In this document: piece by piece, positions 13,016 to 62,916 of the stretch
Layout of the letters: each line of letters begins with the position of its first letter
Position numbering within the stretch: the first letter of the stretch is position 1
Origin: a virus
IMG/VR virus record: IMGVR_UViG_3300045947_000193
Location: 2,384 to 66,383 of that record
DNA length: 64,000 bases
Reading direction: 5' to 3' (one strand)
Translations under genes and position numbers: made by a program
The notes under the pieces: generated by a model
What the model saw: the letters and a program-made list of their open reading frames with translations, nothing else
What the model was told of the DNA's origin: nothing
The model's database searches: none

Positions 13016-13092
13016 CCAGGGACCTAGAGAGCGAGACCCAGCCAGGGACCTAGAGAGCGAGACCCAGCCAGGGACCTAGAGAGCGAGACCCA
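13015..13092 (+). repeat. Perfect 26-bp tandem repeat x3
   Basis: GCCAGGGACCTAGAGAGCGAGACCCA at 13015, 13041, 13067 with no spacers. Confidence 0.95.
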
Positions 13093-41025: not shown

Positions 41026-41302
41026 ACGCCCCTGGACCCGCTTACGCCTGGAGGAAGAACTGACGCGCCTGGCCAACCCCGCCGCGCGCGCGGACGCCCA
41101 GGCCGATGGCAGCGCCCCCGTGCTGTGTATCGGTATCCTGGACGCCTGCAAACGCTATCACGTTTTCCGGCCCTGGTGGTTTGAGCAGTGGGCACGCCAG
41201 ATACACGACCAGGGCACCGCCAGCTTACGGCCCAGGGAGGAGGACCTCCCGGCCAACACCATGACCCCTGAAGCCCGGCGCCAGCTAGGCATGGAGGACT
41301 AG
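41015..41302 (+). CDS. Hypothetical protein
   Basis: Coupled between the two giant ORFs. Confidence 0.45.
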   Translation: MQLERPWTRLRLEEELTRLANPAARADAQADGSAPVLCIGILDACKRYHVFRPWWFEQWARQIHDQGTASLRPREEDLPANTMTPEARRQLGMED

Positions 41303-44300
41303 ATGCTGCAGTTTGTACTCCTCCTCAACAAGGCCCACGTCAAAGGCCACTGGCGGACCACGCCCACTGGCCAGCGCGTCTATGTCTCACCCCACGAACG
41401 CCAGGACCAGGAAGGGTACGACCCCTCACAGCTTCCCCTGTTCGGCGCACCCGCTGCCCGGCCACCGGAGCCAGCCCCACCGCCGAAGCCAGAACCAGAG
41501 CCCGAACCGGAACCGGAGCCAGTACCCACGCCAGAGCCCGAGCCCGAACCGGAACCCGTGCAGGCTGAGACCACACCCGCGACGATCCCGGAGTACGTCA
41601 AGGACGCCGTGAAGCTCAACGCCGAGCGTATCCATTACTTCAATGAGGAAGTGGAGCGACTACGCAAGCTAGGGCAGCGCTTTGGCAGTCCAGGCCGCTA
41701 TGAGTACGAGTACCGCACCGAGCATGAGCACCAATTTGACGCGAACGTCGACAAGCTCAAATACATTGAGGGACTGGCTGAAAAGAACGGTTTTAGCTTA
41801 GAGCAGCTCTATGCCCATGTGGAGGGTGGACGCCCGGAGAAAATCCCGTGGAGCATGGCCGCCAGCGCGTGGGGACGCCCCAGAGAGCCCAAGACCACGC
41901 CGGAGCCCACACCCCCACCGGCGCCCGCACCAGAGCCCGAGCCCACAGCCACCACACCGGAGCCCTGGCAGATGACGCGCCGGGAGTTTCGACACGCGGA
42001 GAATGCGCCGAAGGTCCAGGCGATCCAGGCCGCCATCCGGGCTGGCAAGCGGATCACGGCAGTGACGCAGCTACGAGTGACGCCGCTCACATCCCCCGAG
42101 CATATCCGCCTGACCAGTACCGGGCATGTGCAGACACGCGAACGGACCACCTGGGTCAATATGACGGACGACATGGTGGACACACTCGCCGCCCAGGCCG
42201 GGATGAAGCTCCCGGACTTCATGGAGAAGGTCTACCACCGCGCAGAGGTAGCGCAGGCCCTCAAGGAGGGGAAGCCTGTCCCGCCCGAGGTGTTAGCCGA
42301 GTACCCCGAGCTGAGCAGCCAGGAGGACGAGGAACCGGAGGAAGCCCCACCGGCAATACAACATCGCCCCCTCACTGAGGATGCCATCCATAATTGGGAC
42401 GCTCCCTATATCCAAAAACAATATGGCGAGCATCCCGAGGAAATCCGCCAGGCGGCCATGCAAGCCATGCGGCGCCACCATCAAAAAGGCACAAGCGCCC
42501 GCGAGGAAGCGCAAGCGCTCAATGCGCAGTTTGGCCTCACGAAGGAACCAGAGCCCACCCCCACGCCGGAGCCGGTCGACACCACCACTGCCCAGCTTGA
42601 CCAGGCCGAGCACGATCTAGGGGACCTGGAGGGCGACGTAGCCAGCACCGAGCGTGCGCACACCGCCGACACCGAAGACGAGCAGGACGACGACGCCGAG
42701 GGCGACGGCGACGAGGGAGAGCAGACTTTCAGCCTGATCACCGGCAGGACCTACCCGCTGCGCCGTGACCTGGTGAGTCTGGGTGCGCGCTGGCATGCCG
42801 ATGAGAAGGGCTACATTGTGCCCACCGGCAAGGCAGAACAGGTAGAAGCCTACGCCCGCAGCAAGGGGCTCACCGTGGGGAAGGTCGACCTGCCCGCCGA
42901 AGACTACCACCGCGAGAAGCTCACCGGCGAAGCCCTCCGCGCCCACCGCCAGGCCGGACTCGACAAGAAAATCACCCGCTGGCGGAGCCAGGCCGCGCGC
43001 CTGGAGAAACAGGCTGCAGCCCTGGAGGCACGGCTCAAGCCCTACGATGATATGCAATTCTGGACGGAGCCCCTGAAGCCCGACCATTACAGCTATAACC
43101 GGCATCGCAACTTGCGCGAGCGACTCAGGGCCATGATGGACAAGCGTATGGGCATGCTCCGCGACGCCCACGCACTCAGGCAGAAGGCGGACGGCTGGGA
43201 CCGGGCTGGCGCCCAGATAGCAGGCGACCGGGAGCGCCAGCGCCAGGCCCAGCGCGAGATGGTCAGCTCCCAGGTGACTGTAGGGAGCCGCATCCATGAC
43301 GCGATCTATGGCAAGGGGACCGTGGTCAAGGTCAACCCCAAGACGTTCACCGTGCGCTATGACAACGGACACACCTCTGCCACCGACAAGAGCCACGCCA
43401 TGCCACTAGGGGAGACTGTGCCCCTGGCAGAGCTGAAAGAGCAGACCAGGCCGAAGTACAAGAAGGGCGACACCGTCCGCTTTAACTCGTTCGGACAGGA
43501 TAGAGTGGGGACCATTACGAGCGTAGGCCCACGCTCCTACAGTATTCGTGTCCATGGCGCCGTCCAGACCAGCCCGCTCAAGGTCGACCATCAGCGCGTA
43601 TTAGGCCCGGACACCACCCCGGAGCCCGCGCCCGCAGCCGCGCCAAGTGCTCCGCTCAGGCGTGGCCAGTTTGTGCGGTTTACCCATGGGGTACTGAGCA
43701 GTACACCCCGCTATGGCACCATTACGAACGTAGGACCGGACACCTATACCATTCGCGCGATGGACGGTGGACGGATACTGGAAGTGAACCATAAAGATGT
43801 GATGGCCAAGGCCCGCAACACGCCCCGCCTGGTGCTCCTGCTCAACAAGGCCCACGTCAAGGGCCACTGGCGCACCATCCCGACTGGCCAGCGTGTGTAC
43901 GTGGCAGCCCATGAGCGCCAGGACGACCCGCACGCCTGGTCCAGTCAGATGCCCCTGTTTGGCGCCCCGCGTGGGACCCTGGTCACCGTGCACCAGCTCA
44001 CCCCGCAAGAGGCACCCGCGTTCGCCTCACCCGAAGCCCCCGCTGTCACGGCCATGCCCGTGAGCGTACCAGCCCCCGTGCGCCCGACGCCGAAAGAGGC
44101 GCCACACCTGCCCATGCCCGAAAAGGCCAGCAAACACCCGCGCCGTGCCGAGTCTGCCCCCGCTGAGACCTACGCACTGCGCCCAGGCGGACGGTTTAAC
44201 TTTACCTCGCAGGAAATCGACCAGATTGTGACCATGATCCAGGAGTACCAGAAGGGCGCCGACCATCCGAGTCTGCGACTCCGCCCGCAAGTCAAGGAGT

Positions 44301-47263: not shown

Positions 47264-47273
47264 GAGCGCTCCT

Positions 47274-50200
47274 ATGGTCACCCGCACAGCCCCTACGCCC
47301 CTGCCCGCCGTGGTGTATCTGCACGGCAGCGACCGCCCGCACCCGTGCTACGTGCGCCTCATGCCCCGCCTGGCCAAGGCCAAGGACATCCCGCCTGGTG
47401 CGCGCTGGATTACCGTGCACCCCAACGGCATGGAAGAGAAGGGTGTCCCGATTCTCATAGAGCCCCGAGGCGACGGCTCGTGGAGCGTCACGGCTGGCGC
47501 CGGTGGCAAGCTCAACTATCTCCGCCTGACCAACGTCAAGAGCGAAGCCGAGTACAGACAGACCGCCAGAGAGCGTGCCGAGCAACGCCGGGAAGCCCAG
47601 AAGGAGCGCGAAGCCATCACGCCGCCCGAAGTCAAAAAAGCCCAGCGCGAAGCCCGAACCGCCGTGCAGCAACAGGCCCGCATCGCGCAACGCGCCTTGA
47701 TAGAGCGCGTCAGGGCGACCCTGGGTGGGGTGAGTGCGGACCTGCCCCCGGAGCGCCTGGCTGGCCTGACCCTGGGCGCCCAGAGTCTCATAGCATCCCG
47801 CCATCACCGCAAGCAGCTCAGCGAAGCCCGCGCACAGTTGGCGGAGCAGAAGCGGACCCTGCTCCTTGACGCCGACGCGCGCGCCGCCATTGGTATGGGC
47901 GACCTGCCCCTGCATGGCAAGACGGACGCCGGGCTCTTTGGTGGTCCCACCCTGGGGCTCACCGACCTGGAGCCCGAACCGACCGGCGCCAGCCGTGGCC
48001 CCAGCCGCCGCGAGAAGGCCACCGCCAACATCATTGACGACCTGCAAAAGCTCGACGTAGACGCCACCAAGCAGGCCCTGGAGCAGCTTGACGAGCAGGA
48101 GCCCGACGCCGACACCGAGCGCGCCCGCGCCAAGTTACAGGCCCAACTGGACGCGCGCGCCCTCCTCGATACCAGCCCGGAGAATCACAAGGCCATTGTG
48201 GACCTGGTGCTCACCCCGGACAAGCAGGCCATGATTGACGACACCGTGGCTGCCCTCAACGCTGAAGGCCGGGACGAGGAAGCCGAGCGCTTACAAAACG
48301 GCTCAGCCGGGTTGCGTGCCTTGCATGCCGAAGTACGCCAGGCGAAGCAGGCCGGACTGACCGACACCGACCAGACCGCTGTGCTGAAGCAGCCCGCTGC
48401 AGACATTGTCGACATGCTCAAGCAAGAGAAAGAGGTTGCCGCCGCTGAGCAGGACGCCCGCCGCATGAAGAAGACCATAGAGACGGGTGGGGTGGTCGAC
48501 ACACAAAAAGCCTTCCGGGTGATGACCTCAGAAGCCCTGGACAAGCAGGTGATCAGCGACTTGCAGGACCAGATACGCGCGGACCTGGCACACAGCATGC
48601 TGGAACACGTCAAGGGCAAGGAAGAGACGGCCTACCGGGCTCCTATTGCCGCTGGCATGCAGAGCGCCATAGATAACTTGTCCCTGGCAGCATTAGGGAG
48701 TGCCATGCTCAGCCGGGATGTGATCGACTTTCTAGGCCCCAAAAGCTCCGCGCAACTGCTGGCCTGGCACTTGCACAACACCATCCCTGGCGAGATGGAG
48801 CGCATCCGGGAAGGCGTGGAAGCGCACCACGCCGCAACGGAGAGCAAGCTGGCGGAGGAAGCCCTCAAGGCCGCAGACCCGCTGCTCAAAGAAGCGGAGC
48901 GCATGGCCCAGACCATGACCGATGAGCCGAGCGACCTCAAGGCCGCCCTGGAACAGAACCGCCAGCGCCTGGACCTCCTGGAGCAGGCCCGTGGGCTCAT
49001 TGGCACCACCCTGGGACGCCTGGAAGGCCAGGCCCTCCTTGGGGAAGCGCTGCGCCGCCCGCCTGTGGAGCACCTGGAGGTGAGTCTAGGAACCGTGGGC
49101 AATGCCGACGTACTCATGGCCGCGCGTGCGTTAGGGCTCACCCCGGACGACTTCAGCATGGACCTGGTGGGAGGGACGCGCCTCATGACGATCCACCCGG
49201 ACGCCCTCCCCAAGCTGCTCAGTCAGACCCCCAAGGACGCCGTGCAACGCGCGCGCACGGTAGCCGACATCAAGGCCGGGAAGCACGACGAAGCCGACTG
49301 GCTCCCGGACGGCATTGTTGCCAGGCCCCTCACCGAGTTTACAGACCCCGTGCGCCAGGCCCACTATGCCACCACACCGCTGGAACTCACCGAGCAGATG
49401 AGTGAGCCCGATGCAGAGCACGCCATCCAGGCCCACGTTGCCAGCCGTGCCTACCTCGACGGCGCCGAAGATTTTAGAGACATACGCTCTGACCTGCTCA
49501 GTGCCGAGCGCCAGGCCACTATTCCCCCGGCCTTGCTGCCCACCTATCAGCGCATTGTGGAGGATGCTTTCCCCCTGGAGACCCCGCGCGCGCGGGAGCT
49601 GACGCACGAAATGGCCGGGATACGCCAGCAGCTAGAGGACCTGGAAACCCCCTCGATGTTTGGCCCACCCGCTGAGGGCGACCCCGACGCCTTGAAAAGC
49701 CGCCTGGCCGCCGCTGAGCGCGAACACGCCGAAGAGAGCCTGCCCGAGAAGCAAGAGGCAGCCCTGCACAGCCGCGCCGCGCAGTGGGTCAAGCCCTACC
49801 TGGACGCGCACCCAGAAATGACACCCCTCGATCACCAGAGTATTCCCGACACTGAAGACACGCGCCGCGCCGTGTTCCGCGCCCTGGCCAGTGTGCCAGA
49901 GGGGAGCGTGGCCTTTAAGAAGGTGGGGGAGCTAGGGGACCACGCCAGCACCAGCATGCTGCAGGAACACTTCTGGAAGCACCACAGCCCCATAAGCAAG
50001 GATGAAGCCCTAGAAGCCCGCCAGCAGCTCAAGGACCTGCCCAACCCTGGCAGAGACTGGCGCCAGTGGCAGGCCCAGCATGGCACGGGAGACGCCGCCT
50101 ACCATGCCATCCAGGCCCATCTGCAAAAAAAGGAAGAGGAGGAAGCTGGAGGGGGACTCTTTGGAGCGGTAGCAGAGCCCAACCTCATGGCCGCTGGCAA

Positions 50201-52583
50201 GCTCGACAACATAGAGGACCTGGCCACCATGGCTGGTATGATCACCGCCGACGATGCAGAGCCCATCTCCCGCGCCGCCCAACTGTACGCCTACGAGCGC
50301 GAGAACGACGCCGAGAAGCAGCAACGGATGGAGAGCCTGCAGCACCTGGTCAAGGGGCACTTGCGCGACATCTTTGACCGGCAAATTGCCAACGGGGGGA
50401 AGGGTGTCACCGCGCAAGACCGCGAGAACTACGACCGCGCCAAGCTCGCAGCGGACCCGTGGGCTGCCTACGTGCTGGCACACGGGGGAATCCGCCGCGC
50501 CAGGGAGGCACTGCTCTCTAGTGCCCGTGGCAAGTTTGCCGATGCCTTCAGCCACGCATACGGGCAGATCACCGGCGAGCCGCTGAAGACGGGCAAGCAA
50601 CGCCTGGCACAGTGGCAGGGGCATGTACGCGGGAGCATGAGCCCGGACGACCTCCTAGCGCACCTCAAGGAACAGCGTGCCAGCACCGCCAGTGCGCATG
50701 CCGCTGTGGCCCGCCGTGGCACGGGGGGACAGTTTGCAGAGGGGGAGCGCGCCGCTATCGCGACCGCCAGACAGGAGCAGGCCGCCGCGTCGCAGCTTGG
50801 CTTTTTCTCGCCCCAGCCCACCGTCACCAAGGCCGCGCGCCAGGCCGAGACCGACCGCACCACACTAGGGAAGTTGGCGGAGAATCAGCTAGGGGGAATC
50901 ATCAACCATCCGGGTTTTGCGCCCATTGTGGAGCAGATGAAGGCCACCGGAGGGCGAGGCGTCAAGCTCATGCCAGGGCTCAGTATGTCAGGCCAGTATG
51001 CCCCGCAGCAGCGCGCCGTCCGCATGATGGACGCCGCCAAACGGATAGCCATCCATGCTGGCGTAGGCAGTGGCAAGACCCTCATTGCCCTGGGGACCCA
51101 CACGCACCTGCACAACAAGGGCGACATCCACAAGACCATTATGGCCGTCCCCAGCGCCGTACAGGGCCAGCTCCCAGGGGAGATATTGCGCTATACGGAC
51201 CCTGGCAAGGTCAAATTTTTCGCGACGCCGGGTGCGGACCGTGCCACCCGCTTGCGTGCCCTGGCTGACCCCAAGACGCCGCTGGTAGTGGCCACGCATC
51301 AGAGCCTGAGAGATGACCTTGTCCACCTGGTAGCCGAGCATCAAGGCAAAAGCCCGGCAGAGGTAGCCACCTTCTTTCGCGACTCAGCGCAGAAGGACGG
51401 CCACCGCCAGGCCCTCAGAGCCGCCCTCGACAACGCCGGAATCCCGCCCAGCATTATGACCGTCCTGGACGAAGGCCACACCACGCTTGACCGCATGGGC
51501 AAAGACGACAGCCTCATGAGCAACGTCTTTACCGCGCTGTCCCACCCGGACAACTCGACGCATCACATGCTTATGACCGGCAGCCCGCTCAAGAACGATG
51601 TGAGCGAAATCTACAGCACGCTGGAAAAGTTGCACCCAGGCGAGTACACCGACCGTGACGCTTTCCTGCGGCAGTATGCGGTACTCACCCCTGCCTTACA
51701 GGAAAGCCTACAGCGCAAAGTGGCGTCGCATTTTTACGCCACGCGCGTCAGTCCGAGTGTCCCCGCGCATCATAAGGTGTTAGAGCACGACTTGAGCGAC
51801 GCCCAGAGCACCGCCGCCAACGCCGTACAGGAGCACTACGACCGGCTCCGACTGGCGCAGCAACGGGGAACGGTCGACCTCGACGCCGCGCGCGCCCTGA
51901 GCCCGAGCAGCTTTGCGCACCTCCCGGAGGACCAACACGAAGCCCGCGCGCGCCAGTTGCAAGAGAACGCTGGCCTACTCAGAGACAGTGCCCTGGCCCG
52001 CGTGATCCACAGCACCCCGCCCGCCGACAATGCCAAAATCCAGGCCATTGTGCAGCATGCCAGAATGCGCGTGGACCAGGGCAAGCCCGGTATCATCTTT
52101 GCGCACAACCGGGACGCCGTCCAACACCTGCATGACGCGCTGAAGGCCGCTGGGATACGGGTAGGCACCCTCACTGGCCAGCACACGGCTGGAGAGAAGA
52201 ACCGCGTGCGCCAGGCATTCCAGCCTGAGCAGGGCGACCCAAGTATAGATGTACTTGTGGCATCTGACGCCGGAGCCACCGGGTTGAACCTGCAACGCGG
52301 ACAATGGCTGCACCAGTATGACATTCCGCAAACGGCGATGATCAAGGAGCAGCGAGACGGACGCATCCACCGGCTAGGGCAGACCAACCCGGTAGAGCTG
52401 AGCATCTCCCGGACACGCACGCCCTACGATGCGCAAGCCTGGCAGCGCCTGCAAACCAAGCGCATGCTGGGGGAGGTGTTTCAATCGCCAGCGGACCAGC
52501 TCGACGATACCGGCCTGGCACAGTACCTGCATCACGCCGCTGTACAGCAGGATGAACGGGAGATGTTTCACCGCGCCGCCTAG
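47274..52583 (+). CDS. Giant protein with C-terminal SNF2-family helicase
   Basis: N-terminal ARWITVHPNG...GAGGKLN; AGVGSGKT, LDEGH, MTGSPLKND, SDAGATGLNLQ, EQRDGRIHRLGQ. Confidence 0.88.
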   Translation: MVTRTAPTPLPAVVYLHGSDRPHPCYVRLMPRLAKAKDIPPGARWITVHPNGMEEKGVPILIEPRGDGSWSVTAGAGGKLNYLRLTNVKSEAEYRQTARERAEQRREAQKEREAITPPEVKKAQREARTAVQQQARIAQRALIERVRATLGGVSADLPPERLAGLTLGAQSLIASRHHRKQLSEARAQLAEQKRTLLLDADARAAIGMGDLPLHGKTDAGLFGGPTLGLTDLEPEPTGASRGPSRREKATANIIDDLQKLDVDATKQALEQLDEQEPDADTERARAKLQAQLDARALLDTSPENHKAIVDLVLTPDKQAMIDDTVAALNAEGRDEEAERLQNGSAGLRALHAEVRQAKQAGLTDTDQTAVLKQPAADIVDMLKQEKEVAAAEQDARRMKKTIETGGVVDTQKAFRVMTSEALDKQVISDLQDQIRADLAHSMLEHVKGKEETAYRAPIAAGMQSAIDNLSLAALGSAMLSRDVIDFLGPKSSAQLLAWHLHNTIPGEMERIREGVEAHHAATESKLAEEALKAADPLLKEAERMAQTMTDEPSDLKAALEQNRQRLDLLEQARGLIGTTLGRLEGQALLGEALRRPPVEHLEVSLGTVGNADVLMAARALGLTPDDFSMDLVGGTRLMTIHPDALPKLLSQTPKDAVQRARTVADIKAGKHDEADWLPDGIVARPLTEFTDPVRQAHYATTPLELTEQMSEPDAEHAIQAHVASRAYLDGAEDFRDIRSDLLSAERQATIPPALLPTYQRIVEDAFPLETPRARELTHEMAGIRQQLEDLETPSMFGPPAEGDPDALKSRLAAAEREHAEESLPEKQEAALHSRAAQWVKPYLDAHPEMTPLDHQSIPDTEDTRRAVFRALASVPEGSVAFKKVGELGDHASTSMLQEHFWKHHSPISKDEALEARQQLKDLPNPGRDWRQWQAQHGTGDAAYHAIQAHLQKKEEEEAGGGLFGAVAEPNLMAAGKLDNIEDLATMAGMITADDAEPISRAAQLYAYERENDAEKQQRMESLQHLVKGHLRDIFDRQIANGGKGVTAQDRENYDRAKLAADPWAAYVLAHGGIRRAREALLSSARGKFADAFSHAYGQITGEPLKTGKQRLAQWQGHVRGSMSPDDLLAHLKEQRASTASAHAAVARRGTGGQFAEGERAAIATARQEQAAASQLGFFSPQPTVTKAARQAETDRTTLGKLAENQLGGIINHPGFAPIVEQMKATGGRGVKLMPGLSMSGQYAPQQRAVRMMDAAKRIAIHAGVGSGKTLIALGTHTHLHNKGDIHKTIMAVPSAVQGQLPGEILRYTDPGKVKFFATPGADRATRLRALADPKTPLVVATHQSLRDDLVHLVAEHQGKSPAEVATFFRDSAQKDGHRQALRAALDNAGIPPSIMTVLDEGHTTLDRMGKDDSLMSNVFTALSHPDNSTHHMLMTGSPLKNDVSEIYSTLEKLHPGEYTDRDAFLRQYAVLTPALQESLQRKVASHFYATRVSPSVPAHHKVLEHDLSDAQSTAANAVQEHYDRLRLAQQRGTVDLDAARALSPSSFAHLPEDQHEARARQLQENAGLLRDSALARVIHSTPPADNAKIQAIVQHARMRVDQGKPGIIFAHNRDAVQHLHDALKAAGIRVGTLTGQHTAGEKNRVRQAFQPEQGDPSIDVLVASDAGATGLNLQRGQWLHQYDIPQTAMIKEQRDGRIHRLGQTNPVELSISRTRTPYDAQAWQRLQTKRMLGEVFQSPADQLDDTGLAQYLHHAAVQQDEREMFHRAA

Positions 52584-52596
52584 AGAGGGGAGAAGG

Positions 52597-53821
52597 ATGG
52601 ACCTGGCAGAGGCACTGGAACGCCTCATACACACGGAATGCGACACGATCACCGTCTATGGACAAGCCCGCCATCCGTTGACAGGACGGGAGCAGAGCTG
52701 GACCGTCACCTTGATTACCAATCAGTCCAAACGCGCCCACCTGAAGCGCGTCGGAGAGGGCGCCACGGTGACGGAGGCGCTCTGCGCGGCCCTGGCGGAG
52801 GAGGGCACCACGGTAGCCGATCACGCCAAGCGCCGGAGCCATCGGAACAGCTTAGGCTTGGAAGGTATCCCCGCCAAGTATCAGGGCAAAACCTTCAAGA
52901 AGGCGCTGCGCTCACGTCTGTTGTACTAGAAAGGATGTGCCCTATGGAACCCCGCGAGCAGTTACAGGCAGCCCTGGCTGTGATCGAAGCCCACGCCCGC
53001 AGTGCGCACAAGCGACAGCAGGACCTGGAAGCGCTGGCCAGCGACAGCGACGCCCGGCTGCAGCAGGCCCTCAGCCGCTACCAGGCGATTCTGCCCGCAC
53101 TCGGAGCAGGCAAGAACCGCGCCATAGAGCGCGACTATGTCAACCGGCTGGGGGACCGTCGCAGCATGACGCTGGCGCCGATGGAGCACGAGACCCCAGG
53201 ACAGGAAGGCTGAGAGGAGGGACCATCATGGCAGAGGAGCGCGTGCGACTGATGCCCCAGGGTATCCGTCCGATAGGCATGTGCATGCAAGGCTTTGGCG
53301 TCGACGCAGAGGCACAACTCCGCGCCATGTGCAATGGTGCACTCCCCGTGGTAGGGCAGCGGTATGTCTGGCTGTGTACGGCTGTCCAGACCGACGCCGA
53401 CCCGGTCTATGCCCATTTTACCTTGATCCCCGTGGACGAGTAGAGGGGGACCCCGTGCCCGAGCAGCTCCCCACGCTGTACGTGTCTGATGGCACCCCGG
53501 CCTTTACGCACCCGCGCGCCCATGCGGGCACCCTCACCCGCTGCGTGACCGCGCACCCGGCCCCCGTGTGTACCTGTGGCATGTATGCCCTGGTCTGGCT
53601 GAAACCTGGAGAGGAGCCCCCGGATGACCGGCCCGACCGGCAATACGTGTAGACGCTGCCACAAGCGGATTGTCCGCCCTGAAGAGGACGCATTAATCCT
53701 CACCAAGGCCCTCCAGATACGCCAGGGCGTGCTGTACCTCCAGTGTCAGTGTGGCACCTGGAATGCCGCACCCTCACGCCTGTGTGACCGTCTGCGGCTC
53801 ATTTTGATCCTGACGGCCTAG
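52597..53821 (+). CDS. Small hypothetical ORFs (52597-52929, 52944-53213, 53228-53443, 53624-53821)
   Basis: RBS-led; the last is a zinc ribbon (CRRC...CQC). Confidence 0.5.
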
Positions 53822-55518
53822 CCCGCCGCGCCTTTCCTCCCCGTTCCTAGCCCCTCCTCCCACGCCAGGCCCGTCATGTCACCTCTTTACGTGATGTGTA
53901 CAAGGGGAAAATCACGCCCGCAACGCCTGGCCGCCCGCGTCAGGCCATGCCATCCATGCCTTGCCTGCCTGGCCCCGCCCGGCCCCGCGCCGCCCCGCAT
54001 GGCCTCACCATACGCTCCATGCCCTGCCCCGCCTGCCATGCGAGCCCTAGCCTGACCTGTCGACCCATGCTGCGCCTTGCCTGCCAAGCCATGCCCCACT
54101 CCGCCTCTGCAAGCCGTGCCCGCCGAGACATGCCGCGCCCGTCCTTCCTGGTCCGTGCCATCCTTGCGAAGCCTGCCACGCCGGACCGTGCCAGTGCTGG
54201 CGCCACCGGCCCTCGCGCCGCCACTCCAGGCCCGCCGTGCCATCCCGAGCGCCGCCCAGACATGCCGACCCTCGCCCAGCCTGCCACGTCACCCCTAGCG
54301 ACACCTACCACCCTTGTACTGCCATGCCAGCCGCACCGCGCCAATCCTCCCGTGCCGCACCCCTCCCTTCCTGGCGCTCCCGCGCCCGCCGTCCCGTGCC
54401 CCGCCGTCCCTAGCCTCACCGTCCTTGCCAACCCCGGCCAGGCCGCGCGGTCCCTTGCGATACCCCGCCTGCCATGCCACGCCCATCCTCACCAACCATG
54501 CCCTGCTATGCGCGTCAGAGCCTTGCCTTGTCTCGCCCGCCGCACCAATCCTCTCCCTTGCTCGCCAACGCACGACAAGCTAGGCCCGTCCTTGCCTCGC
54601 CCGCCAAGCCACGCCATGTGTAGCCTAGCCCAGCCCGCCGTCCGCGCCCGTCGACACCGCGCCAATCGAGGACGGTCGACGCCTTGCCCGCCGCCCCGCG
54701 CCTCTGCGTACCACTCCGCCCATGCCAGGCCCGCCGTGCCTATCAGCGCCTGTCCTCACCGTCCAAACCACGCCAGCCGCGCCGCTGCGCCCTCGCCCAG
54801 CCTTGGCTCACCAGTCCATGCGTCGCCTGCCTGGCCTGTCCCTACCCCTCCTCTCCGATCCAAGGTGTCCCTATCCCTGCCGAGCCTGCCACGTCTCGCC
54901 TAGTCTCTCCGCCCTCACCATGCCCTGCGCTGCCTGGCCCGCCTTGCCACTCCTTGTCAGGCCCTACCGTCCCCGCGCTGCCTGACCCTCCGCCGCCTGG
55001 CCCGCCACGTCTCGCCTGGCCTTCCGGCCCTACCCGGCCCACGCCATGCCTACCCAGCCGGTCCGACCCTCTCCCTGGCATGTCAGTGCTTGTCCAGCCA
55101 ATGCACGCCTGTCCTCCCTCGCCAAGCCGTGCCCGCCGTGCCACCTGTCCCCGCCTGACCATGCCCGTGCTCGCCACGCGGTCCGTCGCCACGCCTGCCT
55201 TGCCAGTCCTCACCCGTCCGGTCCACACCGTCCCCGCCGTGTCACGCCTGCCCACGCCAGCCCTCGCCCGCCTTGGCAATCCGCGCCTTTCCTCTCCACA
55301 CCGTCCGCGCCTTGTGACGCCTGGCCAGCCTCCCTCGCCGTGGCCACCCTCGCCATCCTTTCCGGCCCAACCCACGCCATGCCTGACATACCAGTCCGCG
55401 CCAGTCCTGGCCATTCCACCCGTGCCGGTCCGGTCCCAGCTTCGCCGGTCCCAGCCAAGCCCGCCACTCCCTGCCAGTCCCCGCCATCCAAGGCATACCT
55501 CGCCCGCCATGCCATGTC
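53818..55518 (-). repeat. Non-coding array of GG-anchored 5-nt units (GGC-NN dominant), putative guide-RNA array
   Basis: Minus strand reads e.g. GGCA GGCAA GGCGC AGCAT GGGTC; GGCG GGCGA GGCAA GGACG GGCCT; 5-nt period with recurring 4-nt GGCA/GGCG/GGCT slips; only low-complexity ORFs in six frames. Confidence 0.85.
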
Positions 55519-55533
55519 TGTGTGTTGACGGGC

Positions 55534-56034
55534 TTACGACGCGCGCCGCCGCCGTCCCCGGCGCCCACGGGCTTGCTCCCGTGCGGACGGCTCCTGCGTG
55601 GGCACTACCACCTTGGACGCCTGCGCCACCGACGCCACCAAATCCTCAAACATGCGGTACCGCCACATCCAGGCCCGTAGCCCGATAAGCGCCGTCTGCA
55701 GCATCTCCTCCCGGAGCACGTCGTCTACGAGAACCTCCTGCATCACTCGGTAGCCCCCGCCAGGCCGTCCCCGGTCTGATTGCAGCGACAGGTACACCGT
55801 CTCGACCTTGCGTGGGACCTCTGGAGGAGGCACCACATAGACCGTGCGTATGAGCCGCCGCGCCTGGTCGACGCGGTATTGATGGCCCGCTACGCGATCA
55901 TCCCACTCAAAATGTGGATGCAACGCACTGGCAGGATTACTGGCAGCTTGCACCACAGCCACCGGCTGGAGCAAGCGCTCCGGGTGCGCTGCATGGATGG
56001 CTTCCAGCTCCCTACGCACCGCCGCTGGTAGCAT
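55534..56034 (-). CDS. Accessory protein of the RAMP-like/array operon
   Basis: LQPVAVVQAASNPASALHPHFEWDD..AG.QYR..QARRLIR; RBS AGAGGAG inside the upstream gene; basic tail. Confidence 0.8.
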   Translation of the reverse strand: MLPAAVRRELEAIHAAHPERLLQPVAVVQAASNPASALHPHFEWDDRVAGHQYRVDQARRLIRTVYVVPPPEVPRKVETVYLSLQSDRGRPGGGYRVMQEVLVDDVLREEMLQTALIGLRAWMWRYRMFEDLVASVAQASKVVVPTQEPSAREQARGRRGRRRRAS

Positions 56035-56737
56035 CGGCAAACTCCTCTCTGGTGATCAGCTCGAAAAAGCCCATATCAATCCCATTACTCTGCTTGCTAT
56101 CTGCCCGGCCCTCGCCCACCGCGACCTGTGCCCCCATGCGCGTAATCAAGTTGGTAATGTCCGACTCACTGAACAAGTCCGCGTCGTAGCGCACGCGCAG
56201 CTTGACATGCCACTCTGTCCACAGCGGACGGCTGCGTATATCGGTGACTCCAGAGGCGTTGCGCACATGCATATGGTTCTCTACGGGCTCTCCGTAAATC
56301 CGTACCAGGGGTGTCCCGTCTGCCACGTCCAGGCCGTCTGCGACCACGAACACAGCCAGCTTGGCTTTGGTCATATGGTAGCCCACCGTGCGACAGGCAG
56401 AAATCATGCCGTTCCTGAAGGCACCGCACGGGATGCCACAACTCCCGTCCGCCATCTTATGCTTGGCATTCTCATAGTCTTCCGTAAAGTTGCGCGGCTC
56501 CCGGACCTTCTTCGACCGTGCCTGGGTCCCCTGTGCCTGGGTGTCCATCATTTTCTGCAAGGTCTTTTCCGAGAAGCGCAGTTGGAGATACGGCGTCGTG
56601 CCCCGCAGGTAAAACTCTAAAAAGCGCTGATTGAGGGGCTTGATACTGATGGCCGTGGCCACCGTATTCACCGGCTCCTCTGCGGGGACCGTGCCGGTGT
56701 GTTTCGCCGTCTTGCGTGGTGTCGTTGCTGTCGCCAT
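56012..56737 (-). CDS. Solitary Cas7/RAMP-like protein
   Basis: N-terminal strand LRGTTPYL, IPCGAFRNGMISAC helix, DIRSRP..TEW..KLRVRY, Gly-rich C-terminal loop MGAQVAVGEGRADSKQSNGIDMGFFEL; RBS AGGAGG. Confidence 0.7.
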   Translation of the reverse strand: MATATTPRKTAKHTGTVPAEEPVNTVATAISIKPLNQRFLEFYLRGTTPYLQLRFSEKTLQKMMDTQAQGTQARSKKVREPRNFTEDYENAKHKMADGSCGIPCGAFRNGMISACRTVGYHMTKAKLAVFVVADGLDVADGTPLVRIYGEPVENHMHVRNASGVTDIRSRPLWTEWHVKLRVRYDADLFSESDITNLITRMGAQVAVGEGRADSKQSNGIDMGFFELITREEFADATSGGA

Positions 56738-56803
56738 GGGTGTGCCTCCTTGGGACATCTGCGGATTGTGTTGTGACATCCGGGCACCATGCCCGTGCCT
56801 GGT

Positions 56804-56867
56804 ACTATATACGACGCAGCAAAAAGGGGTCAAGAACATTCGTGATAAATTATCTTGATAATGTATC
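56804..56867 (-). promoter_or_regulatory. Promoter of the RAMP-like operon plus tandem GATA-N3-TATC operator
   Basis: Minus-strand TTGACC(56833)-N18-TATAGT(56809); GATAaatTATC-TT-GATAatgTATC at 56844-56867. Confidence 0.7.
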
Positions 56868-56972: not shown

Positions 56973-57021
56973 GGCCGCCGTATCTGGGAGGATATTTTCC
57001 CAGGAACGGCGGCCTTTTTTT
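56973..57021 (+). terminator. Intrinsic terminator in the leader of the protease-capsid operon
   Basis: GGCCGCCGT..CTGGGA-loop-TCCCAG..ACGGCGGCC followed by T7. Confidence 0.75.
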
Positions 57022-57040
57022 GTGCCCGGAGACGGACCCC

Positions 57041-57850
57041 ATGGCCGCAGTGCTCCCGGAAACCACGCGCCACTTCCTGGTGGACTTTGGCCTGGTCAAG
57101 GCCGAACCCCTCACCCCAGGCCAGCCCTGGATGATCTACATCCAGGCATCCACCCCTGGTGTGGACTACGACGGGGAGCGCGTGCTGCCCCAGGCCATGC
57201 AGGACGCCCGGCCTTATTTCCTGGCCAATGGGCGTATCAGCTACGAGCACATCACCCCGGACACCCGACATGACCCCAGCGTGCTGATAGGCGAACCCAG
57301 GGAGATGACCATCACCCCCGATGGCCGGACCCTGGTCAAAGCCGAACTGTACCAGCGCGTCAAGAAGGCCCAGGAAGTCTGGGACATCTTGCAGAGCGGG
57401 GGAAAGATGAAGGCCAGTGTGGGTGGCTCAATCCTGCGCCGTCAGCAGGACGTGACCGGCACCCCCGTGGTCACCAAGCTATTCCTCAACCACATCGCCC
57501 TGACCCCCTGGCCCGTCAACGATGACACCAATGTCCAGCTCACGCCTTACGACTCCTTCATGAAAGCGCTGGGGTACCGCGTCCATAAGGCCCTGGGTGC
57601 GACCACAGGCACCAGTGCCCAGCCGCTGGTCATGCAGGACCTGGAAGGTCAACGCCAACGCCTCACCCCTGCCTTTGCCACGCGCTGGCAGGCCCTCACC
57701 GACATCATTCAGCAACTCAGCCAGGAGCGCGGCAAAGCCCTGTCGGACGACGACGCCCGGCAGTGTGCCCTGGCCGTGCTTATCCGCCGTGGAGAAGCGC
57801 GGCAGGCATATGTCGCCGCCAGTGGGAACCGGCTCCCCGGCAGCGTCTAG
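57041..57850 (+). CDS. Prohead protease
   Basis: ASTPGVDYDGERV, F..NG.ISYEH, LIGEP, ASVGG, HIALTPWPVN; upstream of scaffold and capsid. Confidence 0.85.
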   Translation: MAAVLPETTRHFLVDFGLVKAEPLTPGQPWMIYIQASTPGVDYDGERVLPQAMQDARPYFLANGRISYEHITPDTRHDPSVLIGEPREMTITPDGRTLVKAELYQRVKKAQEVWDILQSGGKMKASVGGSILRRQQDVTGTPVVTKLFLNHIALTPWPVNDDTNVQLTPYDSFMKALGYRVHKALGATTGTSAQPLVMQDLEGQRQRLTPAFATRWQALTDIIQQLSQERGKALSDDDARQCALAVLIRRGEARQAYVAASGNRLPGSV

Positions 57851-57860
57851 GAGGACAGGT

Positions 57861-58634
57861 ATGGCTTTCACCAGTAACACGCTCGAAGACGACCTGAAGG
57901 CGTTGGAGGGCAAGCTCAACGGGTCCCAGGAGGACGATGGCGACCTCAAGAAGGCCCTGGCAGATGTGGCCAAGGGTGCTATCGGGCTGGCCACCAAAAC
58001 CCTCAGCAAGGCCCGTGGGGACGATGACGACATGGGCGCCGATGAGGACGAAGGCGACGACGACCGCCCCGGCACCGACGACGACGACACCGAAGAGTGG
58101 ATACAGAACCTGCTCCAGAACAAGGGAGGGGAGCCCGCCCAGAAATCCCGCCGCCAGGAGTGGGGAGGGGAGGGACTCTACAAGGCCCTCAGTGCCGACA
58201 GCGATGTAGGCGCCGTCGACGTGGGAGGGTACCTGCAGGAAGAGTTAGCGATCCGCGAGCGTGACCGCAAAGAACTCCGCCGCTTGCGCAAGCAAAACGG
58301 CCTACTCCTGAAAGCCATCACCGACCTGCACGCCTCAAGCACCGCCAACAGCCGCGCCCAGCAGCGTGTCAACGCTGTGCTGGCCAAGGGGCTCATGAAG
58401 CTCCTCGACGCCACCGACGACTTGAACAGCCAGCCTGCCACGGGCTCCCGCTTCGCCCTGATGGAGAAGTCTGTCAGCGCCGCCAGGGACCACCTCCGTA
58501 CTCAAGGAGGGCAGGAGGTGAAGTACACCAAGGACCACGCCGTCCGCCTGCTCCAGAAAGGCATCATCACCCAGGAACAGCACCGCATCTGGAAGACCAC
58601 CAACATGCTGCCACCCGGCATTGACGCCGCCTAA
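57861..58634 (+). CDS. Scaffolding protein
   Basis: Acidic, helical, many LxKA sites; lies between protease and capsid. Confidence 0.65.
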   Translation: MAFTSNTLEDDLKALEGKLNGSQEDDGDLKKALADVAKGAIGLATKTLSKARGDDDDMGADEDEGDDDRPGTDDDDTEEWIQNLLQNKGGEPAQKSRRQEWGGEGLYKALSADSDVGAVDVGGYLQEELAIRERDRKELRRLRKQNGLLLKAITDLHASSTANSRAQQRVNAVLAKGLMKLLDATDDLNSQPATGSRFALMEKSVSAARDHLRTQGGQEVKYTKDHAVRLLQKGIITQEQHRIWKTTNMLPPGIDAA

Positions 58635-58661
58635 CCTGCCCAGCAGTAGAGGAGCACGACC

Positions 58662-60146
58662 GTGATAGGTTTTGACTCATTGGTAAGCTCTGGGATGCTC
58701 CAGGACGAACTGCTCAAGGCGCTGGCGTCGACAGCAAGCGCGGGCACGGACGCATCCCCATTAGTCAAAGAGGACTTGGAGGTAGAAGCCCACACCCAAC
58801 TGTGGCTAGAGACCGACCCGGTTGAACTGGTCATATTGAAACACTTGCCACACGTCCAGGCATTCAGCGTGCTGCATGAGTTTGACCAGATCATAGGCTA
58901 TGGCGCGCGTGGGCATGACGGTTTTTACGGGGAGAACAGCCTACCCGCAGAAGCCGCGATCCAGTCCAGACGCAAGACCGTCAATATCCGTCTGATGGGT
59001 GACATCTCTAGCGTGTTCGCGCTGGCCAGCTTCCAGACGCCGATCCAGGCGTTAGGACAGTCCAACCTGGTCGACGAGAACATGGCCAGCACCCGGCTGG
59101 ACCTGCTCCACAAGATGGCCGTGGCGGTCTACAACGCCGACGATGGCAGCACCACCCACACGCTGCGCTTTAAGGGACTGCGCCAGCAGATACTAGAGGG
59201 CACCAGCCCGTCCAGTGCTGCGCCGTTCACGATCAACCCGGATTACATCATTGACCTGCGTGGTGCGAAGCTCGACCCGCCAGAAATTAGAAAGCGTGCC
59301 CGCCAGGTACGGGAGCGCTTTGGGGCTATGCGCTGGCTGTACATGGCGCCGTCCGTCTCAGAGTTTCTGGAAGAGAGCCTGGACCCCGCCGAGCGCTTGA
59401 TGATCCCGCGCACCCCAGGGGACGCGGTGATTCTGGGGCAAAACATTGGTGGCATGAACACCGCTGGCGGCATTACGCGCTTTGCGGTGGACAACACCCT
59501 CACGAGCAGCCTGTACATGGGCGCTGCCCCACTTGTGGCGGAGACCAACGCCCCGGCGCCGCTCCCGGCTGGCAACATTGCTGCCCCGGTTGTCGCCGCT
59601 GACGCTGCCTCTCTGTGGGGAGCCGCTGACGCCGACGCCGCCGTGGTCTATGACATTACGGCCCTCAATGCCGCTGGCGAATCGACCGCCACGCGCGTGG
59701 GTCCTATCGCCGTCGCCGCTGGCCAGAAGGTCACCATTGCGATCACCCCGCGCGCCGCAGACACCTCGTACCGCATCTACCGGGGAGACAGCACCCTCAA
59801 CCCGCCGCTGTTTATCCGGGAAATCAAAGGCACCGGCAATACCACCGCATTCAATTTTGTCGACCTCAATGAACGCATCCCAGGCACCACGGACGCCTTT
59901 GGTCTCAACATCGCCAGTGCCAACAGTGACGCCATGCGCATGAACGACATGAGCCGCGTCACCTTGCAGAACCCGCCCCGCCCGCGCAATACCGCGTCGC
60001 TGGTCACACTAGGCCCATGGATGGGCATTTTTGAACTGGCCCATATTCTCCATACCGCCAGCCGTGACCTGCTCTTTTCGGCCTTTACCCCACAGATCAC
60101 ACACCCCTATCAAAACGTGGTGTGGATCAATGTAGGCGACCGCTAG
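58662..60146 (+). CDS. Major capsid protein (SPO1/Twort-like)
   Basis: ELLKAL...PLVKEDLE, AFSVLHEF, YG..GH.GF.GE, FKGL..QI, IIDLRG, YRIYRG. Confidence 0.9.
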   Translation: MIGFDSLVSSGMLQDELLKALASTASAGTDASPLVKEDLEVEAHTQLWLETDPVELVILKHLPHVQAFSVLHEFDQIIGYGARGHDGFYGENSLPAEAAIQSRRKTVNIRLMGDISSVFALASFQTPIQALGQSNLVDENMASTRLDLLHKMAVAVYNADDGSTTHTLRFKGLRQQILEGTSPSSAAPFTINPDYIIDLRGAKLDPPEIRKRARQVRERFGAMRWLYMAPSVSEFLEESLDPAERLMIPRTPGDAVILGQNIGGMNTAGGITRFAVDNTLTSSLYMGAAPLVAETNAPAPLPAGNIAAPVVAADAASLWGAADADAAVVYDITALNAAGESTATRVGPIAVAAGQKVTIAITPRAADTSYRIYRGDSTLNPPLFIREIKGTGNTTAFNFVDLNERIPGTTDAFGLNIASANSDAMRMNDMSRVTLQNPPRPRNTASLVTLGPWMGIFELAHILHTASRDLLFSAFTPQITHPYQNVVWINVGDR

Positions 60147-60161
60147 AAAGGGAGGAGCGGT

Positions 60162-60578
60162 ATGGCCTGGAAGATTAGCCGCGTCTCTGGCCCTGGGGAC
60201 CACGTACTAGGAGGGACCACGGTCACCTTTGACGCTGAGGGTGTCTGCATCACCGACAACGCCGACGTGGCCGCCAACGCCCGGCAATTCCCGCGCTATT
60301 TCCTGGTGGAAGACACCAGCGAGACACCTCCCGCCCCACCCGCTGAGGAGGGGGAAGCAGAGGAGCCTGGCGCGAGCCCGGACGCCGTGCCTCCGTCCGA
60401 GACCGCACCAGAGGAGGGCGCCGCCAACCAGACGGCGCCTGGCTTCACGCAGGAGGACCTCGAAAGCCTCACCGTGACCGAACTCCGCGAACTGGCCAGC
60501 GCCGCCGATATTTCCGGCGCCAGCCGCATGACCAAGGCCGAGCTGGTCACCGCCTTGCTCGCCAGCCAGGGAGGGTAG
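60162..60578 (+). CDS. Protein with C-terminal Rho-N/HeH domain
   Basis: LESLTVTELRELA....ISGASRMTKAELV. Confidence 0.75.
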   Translation: MAWKISRVSGPGDHVLGGTTVTFDAEGVCITDNADVAANARQFPRYFLVEDTSETPPAPPAEEGEAEEPGASPDAVPPSETAPEEGAANQTAPGFTQEDLESLTVTELRELASAADISGASRMTKAELVTALLASQGG

Positions 60579-60581
60579 GCC

Positions 60582-61427
60582 ATGCCCGGTGGCTGGCAGA
60601 TGGGACTGAAGCCGAAGCCCGACAACCTCAAGGGCATGCTCATTGACAGCATGGTCCCTGAGTACATCCGGCAGACCTACCTGGTAGGCGTCAACCTGGG
60701 TGTGGCCTGGCAGGGTATGCCCGGCGACATCGCCATGCAGAACATCCTCAACGGCATTATTGCCGACGTACAGAGCAAGCTGGGCATCCGTTTTGAGCGC
60801 CAGGTAGTCAAGACCGACCCGGACGCGGACATGGTGCAGGGCGAAGACTTTGACCTCTTAGGGGAGCGCCTGCACCACTTCCGCGCGCAGCTCACCTCGA
60901 CGCACTACTACATACCCCTGCCCTATAGCAACGTCGTGAGTGTGGAGCGCGTGCGCCTGTTTTACGGCAACCAGCTTGTGTACACCGTACCAGCCGACTG
61001 GATTTACTTCACCAGCAAGGAGGGGATTCTCCGCCTGACCCCGAGCCTCACCAACTCTGTCTTGCAAGGCAACTTTGGCGGTTTTGACTCTGTCTTTTAC
61101 ACCTGGACCTATCGCGACTGCATCCCGCATGCCTGGTCTCTCGACTACACCATAGGCTACGACCAGATAGACGCAGATATTGCGCGCTATATCGGCCTGG
61201 CAACGGCCATCCAGGTGCTCTCGACCGCTGGCCAGGGGAGCGACATCTCCGGGGGACTGAGTAACGAAAGCCTGAGCCAGGACGGCATCAGTGAGTCTGT
61301 GGGCTATGCCCAGGGCAAGTATGGCCCCTACAGCGGGCTCATCCAGATGTACGCGGACGAACTCGACCGCATGGACCTGAAGCAGAAACGGCTGGCCAAG
61401 AAGGGCATCAAGGTAGCCGTGGTCTAG
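60582..61427 (+). CDS. Head-tail adaptor (neck) protein
   Basis: Position after capsid; IPHAWSLDYTIG; SLSQDGISES. Confidence 0.65.
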   Translation: MPGGWQMGLKPKPDNLKGMLIDSMVPEYIRQTYLVGVNLGVAWQGMPGDIAMQNILNGIIADVQSKLGIRFERQVVKTDPDADMVQGEDFDLLGERLHHFRAQLTSTHYYIPLPYSNVVSVERVRLFYGNQLVYTVPADWIYFTSKEGILRLTPSLTNSVLQGNFGGFDSVFYTWTYRDCIPHAWSLDYTIGYDQIDADIARYIGLATAIQVLSTAGQGSDISGGLSNESLSQDGISESVGYAQGKYGPYSGLIQMYADELDRMDLKQKRLAKKGIKVAVV

Positions 61428-61437
61428 GAGCACCCCC

Positions 61438-62112
61438 GTGATCTACACCGGACGGCTGGGCAAGCGGCATTTTACCGTGCAGAAGCAACGGGACATGATC
61501 GCCGGGCACGGCGCTAATGTGCTGGTGATTCCGACCGTCACCTGCCCGTGCCTCACCCTGGAGCAGCTCTTTGACCCGCTCTGCCCGGAGTGCTTTGGTA
61601 CTGGACGCTTCCCCCAGCCCGCCTTGCAGTACACCACCGTGCTGGCCCTCATTCAGGACACGGGCAAGCAAGACTACCACGAAGCAGGCTCATGGACCGA
61701 AGGCCAGATACTGTGTCTCACCCCGCCCGAAATCTCCCTGGCCCTGTGGGACACGGTCACCATGCTGGACGTGCGCGACACCTTCAGTGACGAAGTGCTG
61801 CAGCGTGGTGTCAAGGACCGCGTGCGCTTTTCCCAGGGTGTGGAGGTGGAGCTAGTCCTTGACCGGACCCAGCCGTATATCCTGGGGACAGACTACGTGC
61901 TCACCCCGCCGAACGTGATCACCTGGCAGCCCACCGGCAGCAGCCCGGCCACAGGCACCTATTACAGCATCCGGTATAGCGCCTTCCCCACGTATGCCGT
62001 CTTTCAGGACAACGAGCGGCTCCGCGTGGAGAACCGCACGCGCCAGGCCCAGGAGGTGATGCTCAAGCGCCTGGACCGCATCGACCCACAGCGCCCCTTT
62101 CCCGTGCCCTAG
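61438..62112 (+). CDS. Head-closure/neck protein
   Basis: CPC......CPECFGTG motif of the SPO1/Twort-like neck gene. Confidence 0.65.
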   Translation: MIYTGRLGKRHFTVQKQRDMIAGHGANVLVIPTVTCPCLTLEQLFDPLCPECFGTGRFPQPALQYTTVLALIQDTGKQDYHEAGSWTEGQILCLTPPEISLALWDTVTMLDVRDTFSDEVLQRGVKDRVRFSQGVEVELVLDRTQPYILGTDYVLTPPNVITWQPTGSSPATGTYYSIRYSAFPTYAVFQDNERLRVENRTRQAQEVMLKRLDRIDPQRPFPVP

Positions 62113-62124
62113 AGGACCTGGCTT

Positions 62125-62916
62125 ATGGCAGAGATACGCATAGACGTACCCAGGCACACCACCCCGATGCCCCTCACCGAGCGTGCCATATACGACGCCG
62201 CGCGCCTGATTCAAACGGCCTGGGTGGCTGCTGCACAGTCAGGCCGCTACTTCCATCCCGGCCTGGGTGGCTACGTGCGTGGCATTGTGACCGATGACAG
62301 CCTGGTCTACCCCCTGGACGGGGACCCGCTCAGCGCCGCCGTGTTCAACCTGGCACCCTACGCTGGCGTGATCGAAGAGGGCCACCCTGGCTTCCACCTG
62401 CCCAGCGTCATGCACTGGCCGACCCCTGCCAGCAAGCGCGCCAAGGCCGGGCACTACTATATTAACGTCCCATTTCGTCACACCGTCCCGCGTAGTGGCC
62501 CTGGCATTACTGGCCAGGCTCAGCGCGCCATGATGCCCGCGCCCGTGTACCAGGTAGCGAAGCGCCTGGCACCCGGCGAACGCCTCACCGCAGGCCCGAG
62601 CGCAGGCCGCCGTGTGCATGCCCCTGGACTGACGCCCTACGTGCCCCGCTACGCGCGCAACCGGCGCCCTGGCTACGTGCACGCCTCGATCTATGAGAGC
62701 CTGGAGAAACGGGGAGCGGCCCGGCACACCCGCTACATGACCTGGCGCACGCTGAGCCAGAGAAGCCCTGGGTGGCACATCCCCCCACGCCAGGGCACGC
62801 ACATTGCCGCCACAGTGGCCCGTGAAATCGCCCCGCAGCTCATACGCCTGGTGTCCGACGCCGCCCAGCAGGACGTGATCAACTACATACAGAGCCGCAT
62901 GGGAGGCACCTTATGA
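62125..62916 (+). CDS. Tail completion/neck protein
   Basis: APYAGVIEEG, YINVPFRH, YMTWRTLS..SPGWHIP. Confidence 0.65.
   Translation: MAEIRIDVPRHTTPMPLTERAIYDAARLIQTAWVAAAQSGRYFHPGLGGYVRGIVTDDSLVYPLDGDPLSAAVFNLAPYAGVIEEGHPGFHLPSVMHWPTPASKRAKAGHYYINVPFRHTVPRSGPGITGQAQRAMMPAPVYQVAKRLAPGERLTAGPSAGRRVHAPGLTPYVPRYARNRRPGYVHASIYESLEKRGAARHTRYMTWRTLSQRSPGWHIPPRQGTHIAATVAREIAPQLIRLVSDAAQQDVINYIQSRMGGTL

Follow-up and report, generated by a model that had tools for sequence, protein, structure and literature searches.

The DNA analysed here (hereafter the window) is a 64-kb stretch of the 66,383-base IMG/VR virus record IMGVR_UViG_3300045947_000193, which has an estimated completeness of 58%. On its minus strand, set among plus-strand head genes, lies a compact unit made up of a gene for a 241-amino-acid protein, an overlapping second gene and a long array with a five-base period. 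This locus is very probably a Viral Interference Programmable Repeat (VIPR) system of an uncultured soil phage. VIPR, first described in 2026, is a CRISPR-related, RNA-guided DNA silencer (bioRxiv 10.64898/2026.04.26.720920; 10.64898/2026.04.26.720927). In the sections of the first report drawn on here, a typical VIPR locus consists of vipr and one accessory gene (vap), vap products are predicted to act on DNA, and a survey distinguishes 667 systems of seven types (I-VII) with accessory genes vap1-6 (bioRxiv 10.64898/2026.04.26.720920). The locus in the window is likewise minimal (vipr and a partner gene, without cas genes or a CRISPR array). VIPR loci occur mostly in viruses, and the virus record here also encodes portal, protease and major head proteins.

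Upstream of vipr, a consensus scan finds a sigma-70-like, promoter-like site with 10 of 12 matches (TTGACC-18-TATAGT, 56804-56833, minus strand); the region holds two such sites against 0.6 +/- 0.9 in shuffles, each being a consensus match only. The vipr open reading frame (ORF; 56012-56737, minus strand) encodes 241 amino acids from an ATG at 56737 and has an AAGGAGG motif ahead of it. It is overlapped by 23-29 nucleotides by a vap-like accessory ORF (55534-56040, minus strand), which encodes 168 amino acids from a TTG at 56040 or 166 from an ATG at 56034. The array starts about 15 nucleotides past the stop of this accessory gene, and its G-rich tract extends to about 53820. Periodicity and segmentation divide the tract into a main staggered vrRNA array of NNNGG pentamers with four-base NNGG junctions (53936-55517, minus strand), a stretch close to its 3' end in which the period is lost (53886-53935, minus strand) and a terminal short block of about 11 pentamer units (53820-53885, minus strand), which lies directly against the end, at 53821, of a convergent ORF on the plus strand. 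Folding of the RNA at the array's 3' end (53810-53960) was not clearly better than that of shuffles (z -1.88).

An initial annotation, made from the sequence alone, had described a minus-strand unit with its own promoter amid plus-strand head genes, comprising a 241-amino-acid gene, an overlapping 166-amino-acid gene and, about 15 nucleotides past the stop, some 1.7 kb of five-nucleotide-periodic sequence. The coordinates above and the lag-5 identity below agree with that description, the promoter again as a consensus match. The same annotation saw neither cas genes nor a repeat-spacer array, and scans of the window agree: PADLOC matched cas families in 0 of the 57 ORFs scanned, and Tandem Repeats Finder reported no repeat-spacer array. 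The latter program does not call the pentamer array either, as is expected because its units carry hypervariable bases.

The periodicity of the array is pronounced. Sequence identity at a lag of five bases is 0.45, whereas lags of 1-3 and 6-8 bases give 0.26-0.31, and the pattern occurs nowhere else in the 64 kb. To resolve individual units, 53820-55520 was segmented by dynamic programming that rewards units ending in GG. This gave 350 units (293 five-mers, 55 four-mers and 0-1 six-mers) and a score of 447.6, against 150.9 +/- 9.8 in 50 shuffles. In the five-base units, G occupies position 4 in 87% and position 5 in 89% of cases, position 1 is biased towards C (C 58%, A 21%, G 11%, T 11%), and positions 2 and 3 are near-uniform (1.94 and 1.96 bits), with all 16 dinucleotides present. 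Counted from the two G's, position 1 is the third base of a GGY unit and is a pyrimidine in about 67-69% of units. This grammar (GG, a C-biased base, then NN) agrees with that of the VIPR locus of Escherichia phage SUSP1, and NNNGG is listed as an accepted unit variant in methods section 20 of the VIPR report (bioRxiv 10.64898/2026.04.26.720920). An Rfam scan of the array found no ribozyme or other family; its sole row at E<=1 was a chance-level lncRNA (E 0.86, 19.1 bits against a gathering threshold of 55).

The pentamers do not run on in a single register. Instead, each of 55 four-base junctions shifts the phase of the GG pair by -1, and because of this movement the autocorrelation peaks fall at 5, 10, 34 and 39 nucleotides rather than at 35 and 40. 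The slips go in one direction only, with 55 four-mers against 0-1 six-mers. This does not reflect a biased segmentation, since the corresponding counts are 28 and 25 in shuffles and 17 and 19 in synthetic arrays whose indels are symmetric. Among the four-base words, CGGG (17) and CAGG (9) are followed by ATGG, GAGG, CTGG and ACGG (4 each). The junctions split the array into about 55 blocks of 1-13 units, between which segmentation found no recurring 3' tail. Two related loci with cleaner arrays, L006 and L034, show CAGG followed by 8-17 YNNGG units, repeated over and over. According to the legend of fig. S18 of the VIPR report, successive vrRNAs in staggered arrays start at positions that share 1 nucleotide (bioRxiv 10.64898/2026.04.26.720920); both the four-base junction and the CAGG-delimited relatives fit such overlaps, and by this pattern the array is an instance of the 'staggered' architecture named there. 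The small-RNA sequencing described in the same report confirmed hammerhead-interspersed arrays and single-vrRNA systems, not staggered arrays (bioRxiv 10.64898/2026.04.26.720920). The earlier picture of the array as a guide code thus stands for its pentamer GG/NN units and falls for one unbroken guide, as 55 four-base junctions punctuate it.

The protein encoded by vipr connects the locus to CRISPR backbone proteins through structure. An AlphaFold model of the 241 residues, built on 37 homologues, reached a pLDDT of 85.2. Foldseek searches of this model against the PDB gave 24 matches at E<=1e-3 (top match 9g9g_D, E 3.1e-5), the best being Csm3/Cas7-type subunits of type III and type VII complexes. 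VIA-align over 48,161 chains placed Csm3 first (Z 10.1, root-mean-square deviation 4.2, 146 residues aligned), then Cmr4, gRAMP and Cas7, with 14 chains at Z>=8, while BFVD returned three viral proteins at E<=1e-3, one of them named RAMP superfamily protein. The predicted structure therefore confirms a RAMP fold with an RRM core, a G-loop and a thumb, and with it the solitary RAMP/Cas7-like protein that had been proposed from sequence motifs. Sequence searches against general collections returned little: Pfam and NCBIfam held no match for vipr or for the partner protein, and a PDB sequence search with Vipr found nothing relevant (best E 1.3).

A more specific link comes from phage protein families. 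The only PHROG matched by the 241-amino-acid protein is phrog_4652 (E 8.9e-11, residues 38-211), of which the Vipr of SUSP1 is a full-length member (1.4e-96), and hhalign of the family profile against SUSP1 Vipr gave a probability of 92% (E 6e-7, 110 columns). The name VIPR, which the initial annotation had given for phage systems of this layout, is in print, and homology to SUSP1 Vipr ties it to this locus. The residues named as contacting the GGY bases in SUSP1 are H17, R138, D177, W178, R179, E71 and M72, as given in the structure preprint (10.64898/2026.04.26.720927). In the alignment, SUSP1 R138, D177 and R179 correspond to R170, E209 and R211 of the window protein, all three positions being invariant in the family; M72 corresponds to the nearly invariant M111, E71 to G110 (Gly or Ala in the family) and C173 to V205. 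The window Vipr retains all 39 family-invariant residues.

The 168-amino-acid partner matches phrog_15946 (E 2.4e-16). In 69 of the 80 viral loci with relatives of vipr, tblastn detects a homologue on the same strand as that gene, and a word-based search of a large protein collection found only 2 homologues. The partner had been regarded as an 'extra' gene; this does not hold, because the published typical locus includes a vap and 69/80 viral loci carry the partner. Its model (pLDDT 90.7) comprises an alpha/beta part at the N terminus, a helix of 38 residues and a tail rich in Arg. The model resembles known structures only weakly (forkhead domains in Foldseek at E 0.34 or worse; winged-helix proteins in VIA-align at Z 5.1-6.2, under the tool's stated reliability), and the model gives only a faint indication that the N-terminal part is winged-helix-like. 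Following the published statement on vap genes, one might guess at a role in DNA binding. The partner is unrelated to SUSP1 vap1, which belongs to phrog_5926 (hhalign 0.3%).

Relatives of the vipr gene show that it travels with an array. The family comprises 864 proteins at E<=1e-3 among 1396 candidates, and a pentamer-periodic stretch of at least 250 nucleotides is present in 75 of 80 loci from viral contigs and arrays in 56 of 64 loci from bacterial genome assemblies, as expected if homologues carry adjacent five-nucleotide arrays, a co-occurrence that had been put forward as a check. In the viral loci, 98 of 100 periodic stretches lie within 2.5 kb of a vipr homologue, with 2 in the 278,763 bases further off; 76 stretches are downstream of the gene and 21 upstream, and 97/100 are G-rich on the vipr strand. 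Five viral loci lack such a stretch: two of them stop at the gene or shortly beyond it, and another two show shorter tracts once the threshold is relaxed. Staggering is also family-wide, with 1144 four-mers against 240 six-mers across relatives. By record titles, the bacterial assemblies span many phyla, with isolates including Bradyrhizobium, Roseococcus and Azohydromonas; among isolate phage genomes there are 31 matches (25 Mycobacterium phages, 5 Gordonia phages and one cyanophage at 49.5% identity).

Two observations on individual relatives may be added. In a pair of related phages, L074 (6026-6650) and L076 (6051-6825), vipr is 97.8% identical and the arrays align only at 70-74%, the level given by the shared GG scaffold alone; the guide content may therefore turn over fast. 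In a prophage copy of Bradyrhizobium lablabi (L093, G001:C23:124028-124669), the match to the Vipr homologue holds one in-frame TGA, so this copy may be interrupted.

How such a locus might work can be sketched from SUSP1. There, each unit is bound by a single Vipr protomer, which sequesters G1, G2 and the third base, and N4 and N5 pair with DNA so that every third base is skipped; binding silences transcription of competing elements, and natural infection requires Vipr as well as Vap1, as described in the sections of three preprints drawn on here (10.64898/2026.04.26.720920; 10.64898/2026.04.26.720927; 10.64898/2026.10.15.759431). By analogy, one minus-strand transcript from the window would carry vipr, the vap-type gene and the long staggered guide array. 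Vipr protomers would coat the RNA, one per five-base unit, burying the two G's and the following base and presenting the two variable bases. A run of units would then read double-stranded DNA as NN-x-NN-x, with one base in three skipped, and the four-base junctions, by shifting the register by -1, would mark off successive guides. The result would be transcriptional repression of a competing element, most probably another phage or a mobile element. Five findings directly support the assignment to VIPR: the anatomy of the locus, the RAMP fold, the homology to a characterised Vipr, the way in which gene, partner and array stay together across the family, and an array that is not coding. They also lend support, through SUSP1, to the earlier suggestion that a constant GG(C) is gripped and a variable NN displayed; that Vipr here binds RNA, follows the same reading rule and silences a phage or mobile element is probable to the extent that the analogy with SUSP1 carries.

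Staggered VIPR is among the closest known systems. The published account of it likewise has a lone RAMP gene with one accessory gene in a phage and a long, tail-less GG-pentamer array on the gene's strand, with guides offset by one base (bioRxiv 10.64898/2026.04.26.720920); the window copy is distinguished by its 1.7-kb array, about 55 junctions, blocks of about 6.4 units, 67% pyrimidine, CGGG junction and glycine-loop Ala. The type II VIPR of SUSP1 (KT454805.2: vipr 28474-29061, vap1 28031-28471), which we located through its two genes and the flanking YNNGG tracts, shares phrog_4652, the order vipr, accessory gene, repeats, the GG-Y-NN unit and the equivalents of R138, D177, R179 and M72. 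It differs in having four separate vrRNAs of about 100 nucleotides (9-16 units) that are all capped by a conserved 3' tail or pseudoknot, whereas the window has no recurring tail, an unrelated accessory gene (phrog_15946 versus phrog_5926) and Gly at the equivalents of W178 and E71. A type II (SUSP1-like) assignment is excluded by the lack of a recurring tail or pseudoknot and by an accessory gene unrelated to vap1. The backbone proteins of Class 1 CRISPR-Cas (Csm3, Cmr4 and Cas7) share the RRM core, glycine-rich loop and thumb (Z 8-10), but sequence identity to them is only 8-13%, and a pentamer code takes the place of a contiguous spacer. Class 1 CRISPR-Cas as such is excluded, as the window has no cas match among the 57 ORFs scanned and no repeat-spacer array.

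Several results weigh against reading the locus as a working VIPR system. The alignment with SUSP1 Vipr spans the C-terminal half only, with H17 and K33 falling outside it, and W178 corresponds to G210, an invariant Gly. The searches for targets were also negative. Sliding 10-unit guides produced no match of at least 19/20 in the masked window and 80 loci. A skip of 1 nucleotide was not enriched, with one 18/20 match against seven for a 2-nucleotide skip; the gapped NN search with shuffled controls proposed earlier accordingly shows no excess for the 1-nucleotide skip, relative to other skip lengths or to shuffles, in 1.1 Mb of local sequence. Eight clean, block-defined guides gave 1 perfect and 11 one-mismatch matches in this 1.1 Mb, compared with 0-2 and 10-26 for unit-order shuffles, and four exact gapped patterns (two from the window and two from L006 and L034) had 0 matches each in viral contigs. 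One guide of the Bradyrhizobium lablabi copy matched 4 times in 301 genomes of Bradyrhizobium, each time with 2 mismatches, which is about chance level. Finally, contig-level RNA data are uninformative on array expression. They comprise four metatranscriptome runs as contigs, which neither show nor exclude small RNAs. In run X19, a pair of long contigs spans the full 14 kb on both sides and may stem from DNA carry-over. Coverage is sparse in the other runs, and in X23 no contig covers most of the array.

Two side observations concern these RNA contigs. The X19 contigs are interrupted within the array (54650-54660), where a loose end resembling an adapter lies at 54660; this is probably an assembly break. 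In X23, word depths are 14-24 over the head protease and scaffold region (57045-58578) and about 3 over vipr and its partner, which hints at late-gene expression, although contig depths cannot rank genes.

The five-base tract itself could be accounted for in other ways. It might encode a low-complexity protein, as 334-335-amino-acid plus-strand ORFs (53896-54903 and 54684-55688) and a 222-amino-acid minus-strand ORF (55510-54842) are open across it. These frames are a product of composition, because shuffling the order of units yields equally long ones: the longest stop-free stretch of 350 amino acids compares with 310 +/- 73 in 300 shuffles, 25% of which reach 350. Codon periodicity in the array is 1.4 times background, against 11.2 in vipr, 11.7 in the partner gene, 21.8 in the major head gene and 29.7 in a helicase stretch, and its long-range period is instead 4.86 nucleotides, at 11 times background. 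No reading frame can follow a 5-nucleotide period with -1 slips. The array is non-coding, and the chance that it serves as a protein gene is negligible. It might alternatively act as DNA prone to G-quadruplex formation or recombination, with the RAMP protein an orphan in another role. Two-tetrad quadruplexes might in principle arise from a strand on which GG recurs every five bases, and the RNA contigs are uninformative on transcription of the array. However, the tract follows vipr on the vipr strand in relatives from many phyla, the identical grammar of SUSP1 is experimentally an RNA guide in the reported work (bioRxiv 10.64898/2026.04.26.720920), and the two variable bases are near-uniform, as a code would be, all of which makes a DNA element very improbable.

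It is harder to dismiss, though still unlikely, that this is a VIPR locus in decay, whose genes are intact and whose array has drifted and no longer guides anything useful. The array is certainly loose. Only 8 runs of at least 6 perfect-GG units occur in its 1.7 kb, and the pyrimidine fraction at the third base (0.67) lies below the 10th percentile of relatives (0.72; median 0.855). Units per junction (6.4-6.5) compare with a median of 10.7 and a 10th percentile of 7.5 in relatives, and the commonest junction is CGGG (17) rather than the family's CAGG (1078 in relatives; 9 here). Moreover, at position 206 of the glycine loop the window protein alone has Ala, where 80/80 scored relatives have Gly. 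Like the looseness and the low pyrimidine content, this substitution counts against the locus as an ordinary working system. On the other hand, drift is difficult to reconcile with two G's kept at 87-89%, slips that are strictly one-directional (55 against 0-1), strong codon periodicity in both genes and the full set of 39 invariant residues. The array is also among the longest, at about 1,725 nucleotides of periodic length against a median of 575 in relatives; only 4/144 loci are longer. The initial annotation had proposed a long, degenerate example. In addition, relatives with Gly at a pocket position in helix 1 also have short blocks and more purines, and such features may reflect a variant grammar.

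That last point deserves some elaboration within the preferred reading of the locus as a VIPR system. Position 206 sits between the equivalents of SUSP1 C173 and T175, and the glycine-loop segment with these residues lines a pocket that helps exclude third-base purines, according to the structure preprint (10.64898/2026.04.26.720927). The helix-1 pocket position (the equivalent of SUSP1 E71) is Gly in the window protein, and 15 relatives have Gly and 65 Ala there. In relatives with Gly the pyrimidine fraction is 0.77, compared with 0.86 in those with Ala (p 0.007), and blocks are shorter, at 6.2 units compared with 11 (p 1e-4), both uncorrected for relatedness; because the loci are not phylogenetically independent, this association is a lead and no result. 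In the window, Ala206 and the helix-1 Gly stand beside purine tolerance (33%), CGGG junctions and a division into about 55 very short guides. Even the constant bases of the VIPR code may be able to evolve, with this phage as a natural example, a speculative idea to which we attach low confidence. Variant grammars are already in print, as 99 VIPR-like clusters of five-base periodicity have been recovered, some with non-canonical constant bases, in the part of that work cited here (10.64898/2026.10.21.760802).

Published experiments so far concern SUSP1 and the P. fulva type. The clade of the window locus is very large and widespread in the environment, and the contigs that carry relatives have been assigned to many bacterial phyla. 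It leaves the picture of what VIPR is unchanged, as a further example of the published kind. Its value lies in the array: at 1.7 kb and about 55 junctions, it is a natural test case for how guides are delimited without tails or ribozymes, for the minimum guide length and for whether changes in the protein pocket rewrite the constant bases.

The window has a G+C content of 62.7%, and nearly all genes around the VIPR unit lie on the plus strand, with the unit as the single minus-strand unit between them. Head genes of the phage record flank it on both sides. On the upstream side lie the portal gene (30048-31853, plus strand), a DNA methyltransferase gene (plus strand) and three giant ORFs. The giant ORFs (986, 1986 and 1779 amino acids; 38065-52583, plus strand) have SNF2-type helicase, methyltransferase-like, minor-head and DarB-like antirestriction matches and sit directly upstream of the VIPR unit, within the head module. 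Beyond the unit follow the head maturation protease, the major head protein and tail-fibre and virion proteins (57020-62916, plus strand). Elsewhere in the window, a perfect 26-nucleotide tandem repeat (13014-13092; 3.0 copies, 100% identity) is iteron-like, and a 352-amino-acid protein (9205-10263) matches the PADLOC candidate-defence families PDC-M41B (E 6e-60) and PDC-M30B (5e-56) as well as phrog_2045 (2e-82).

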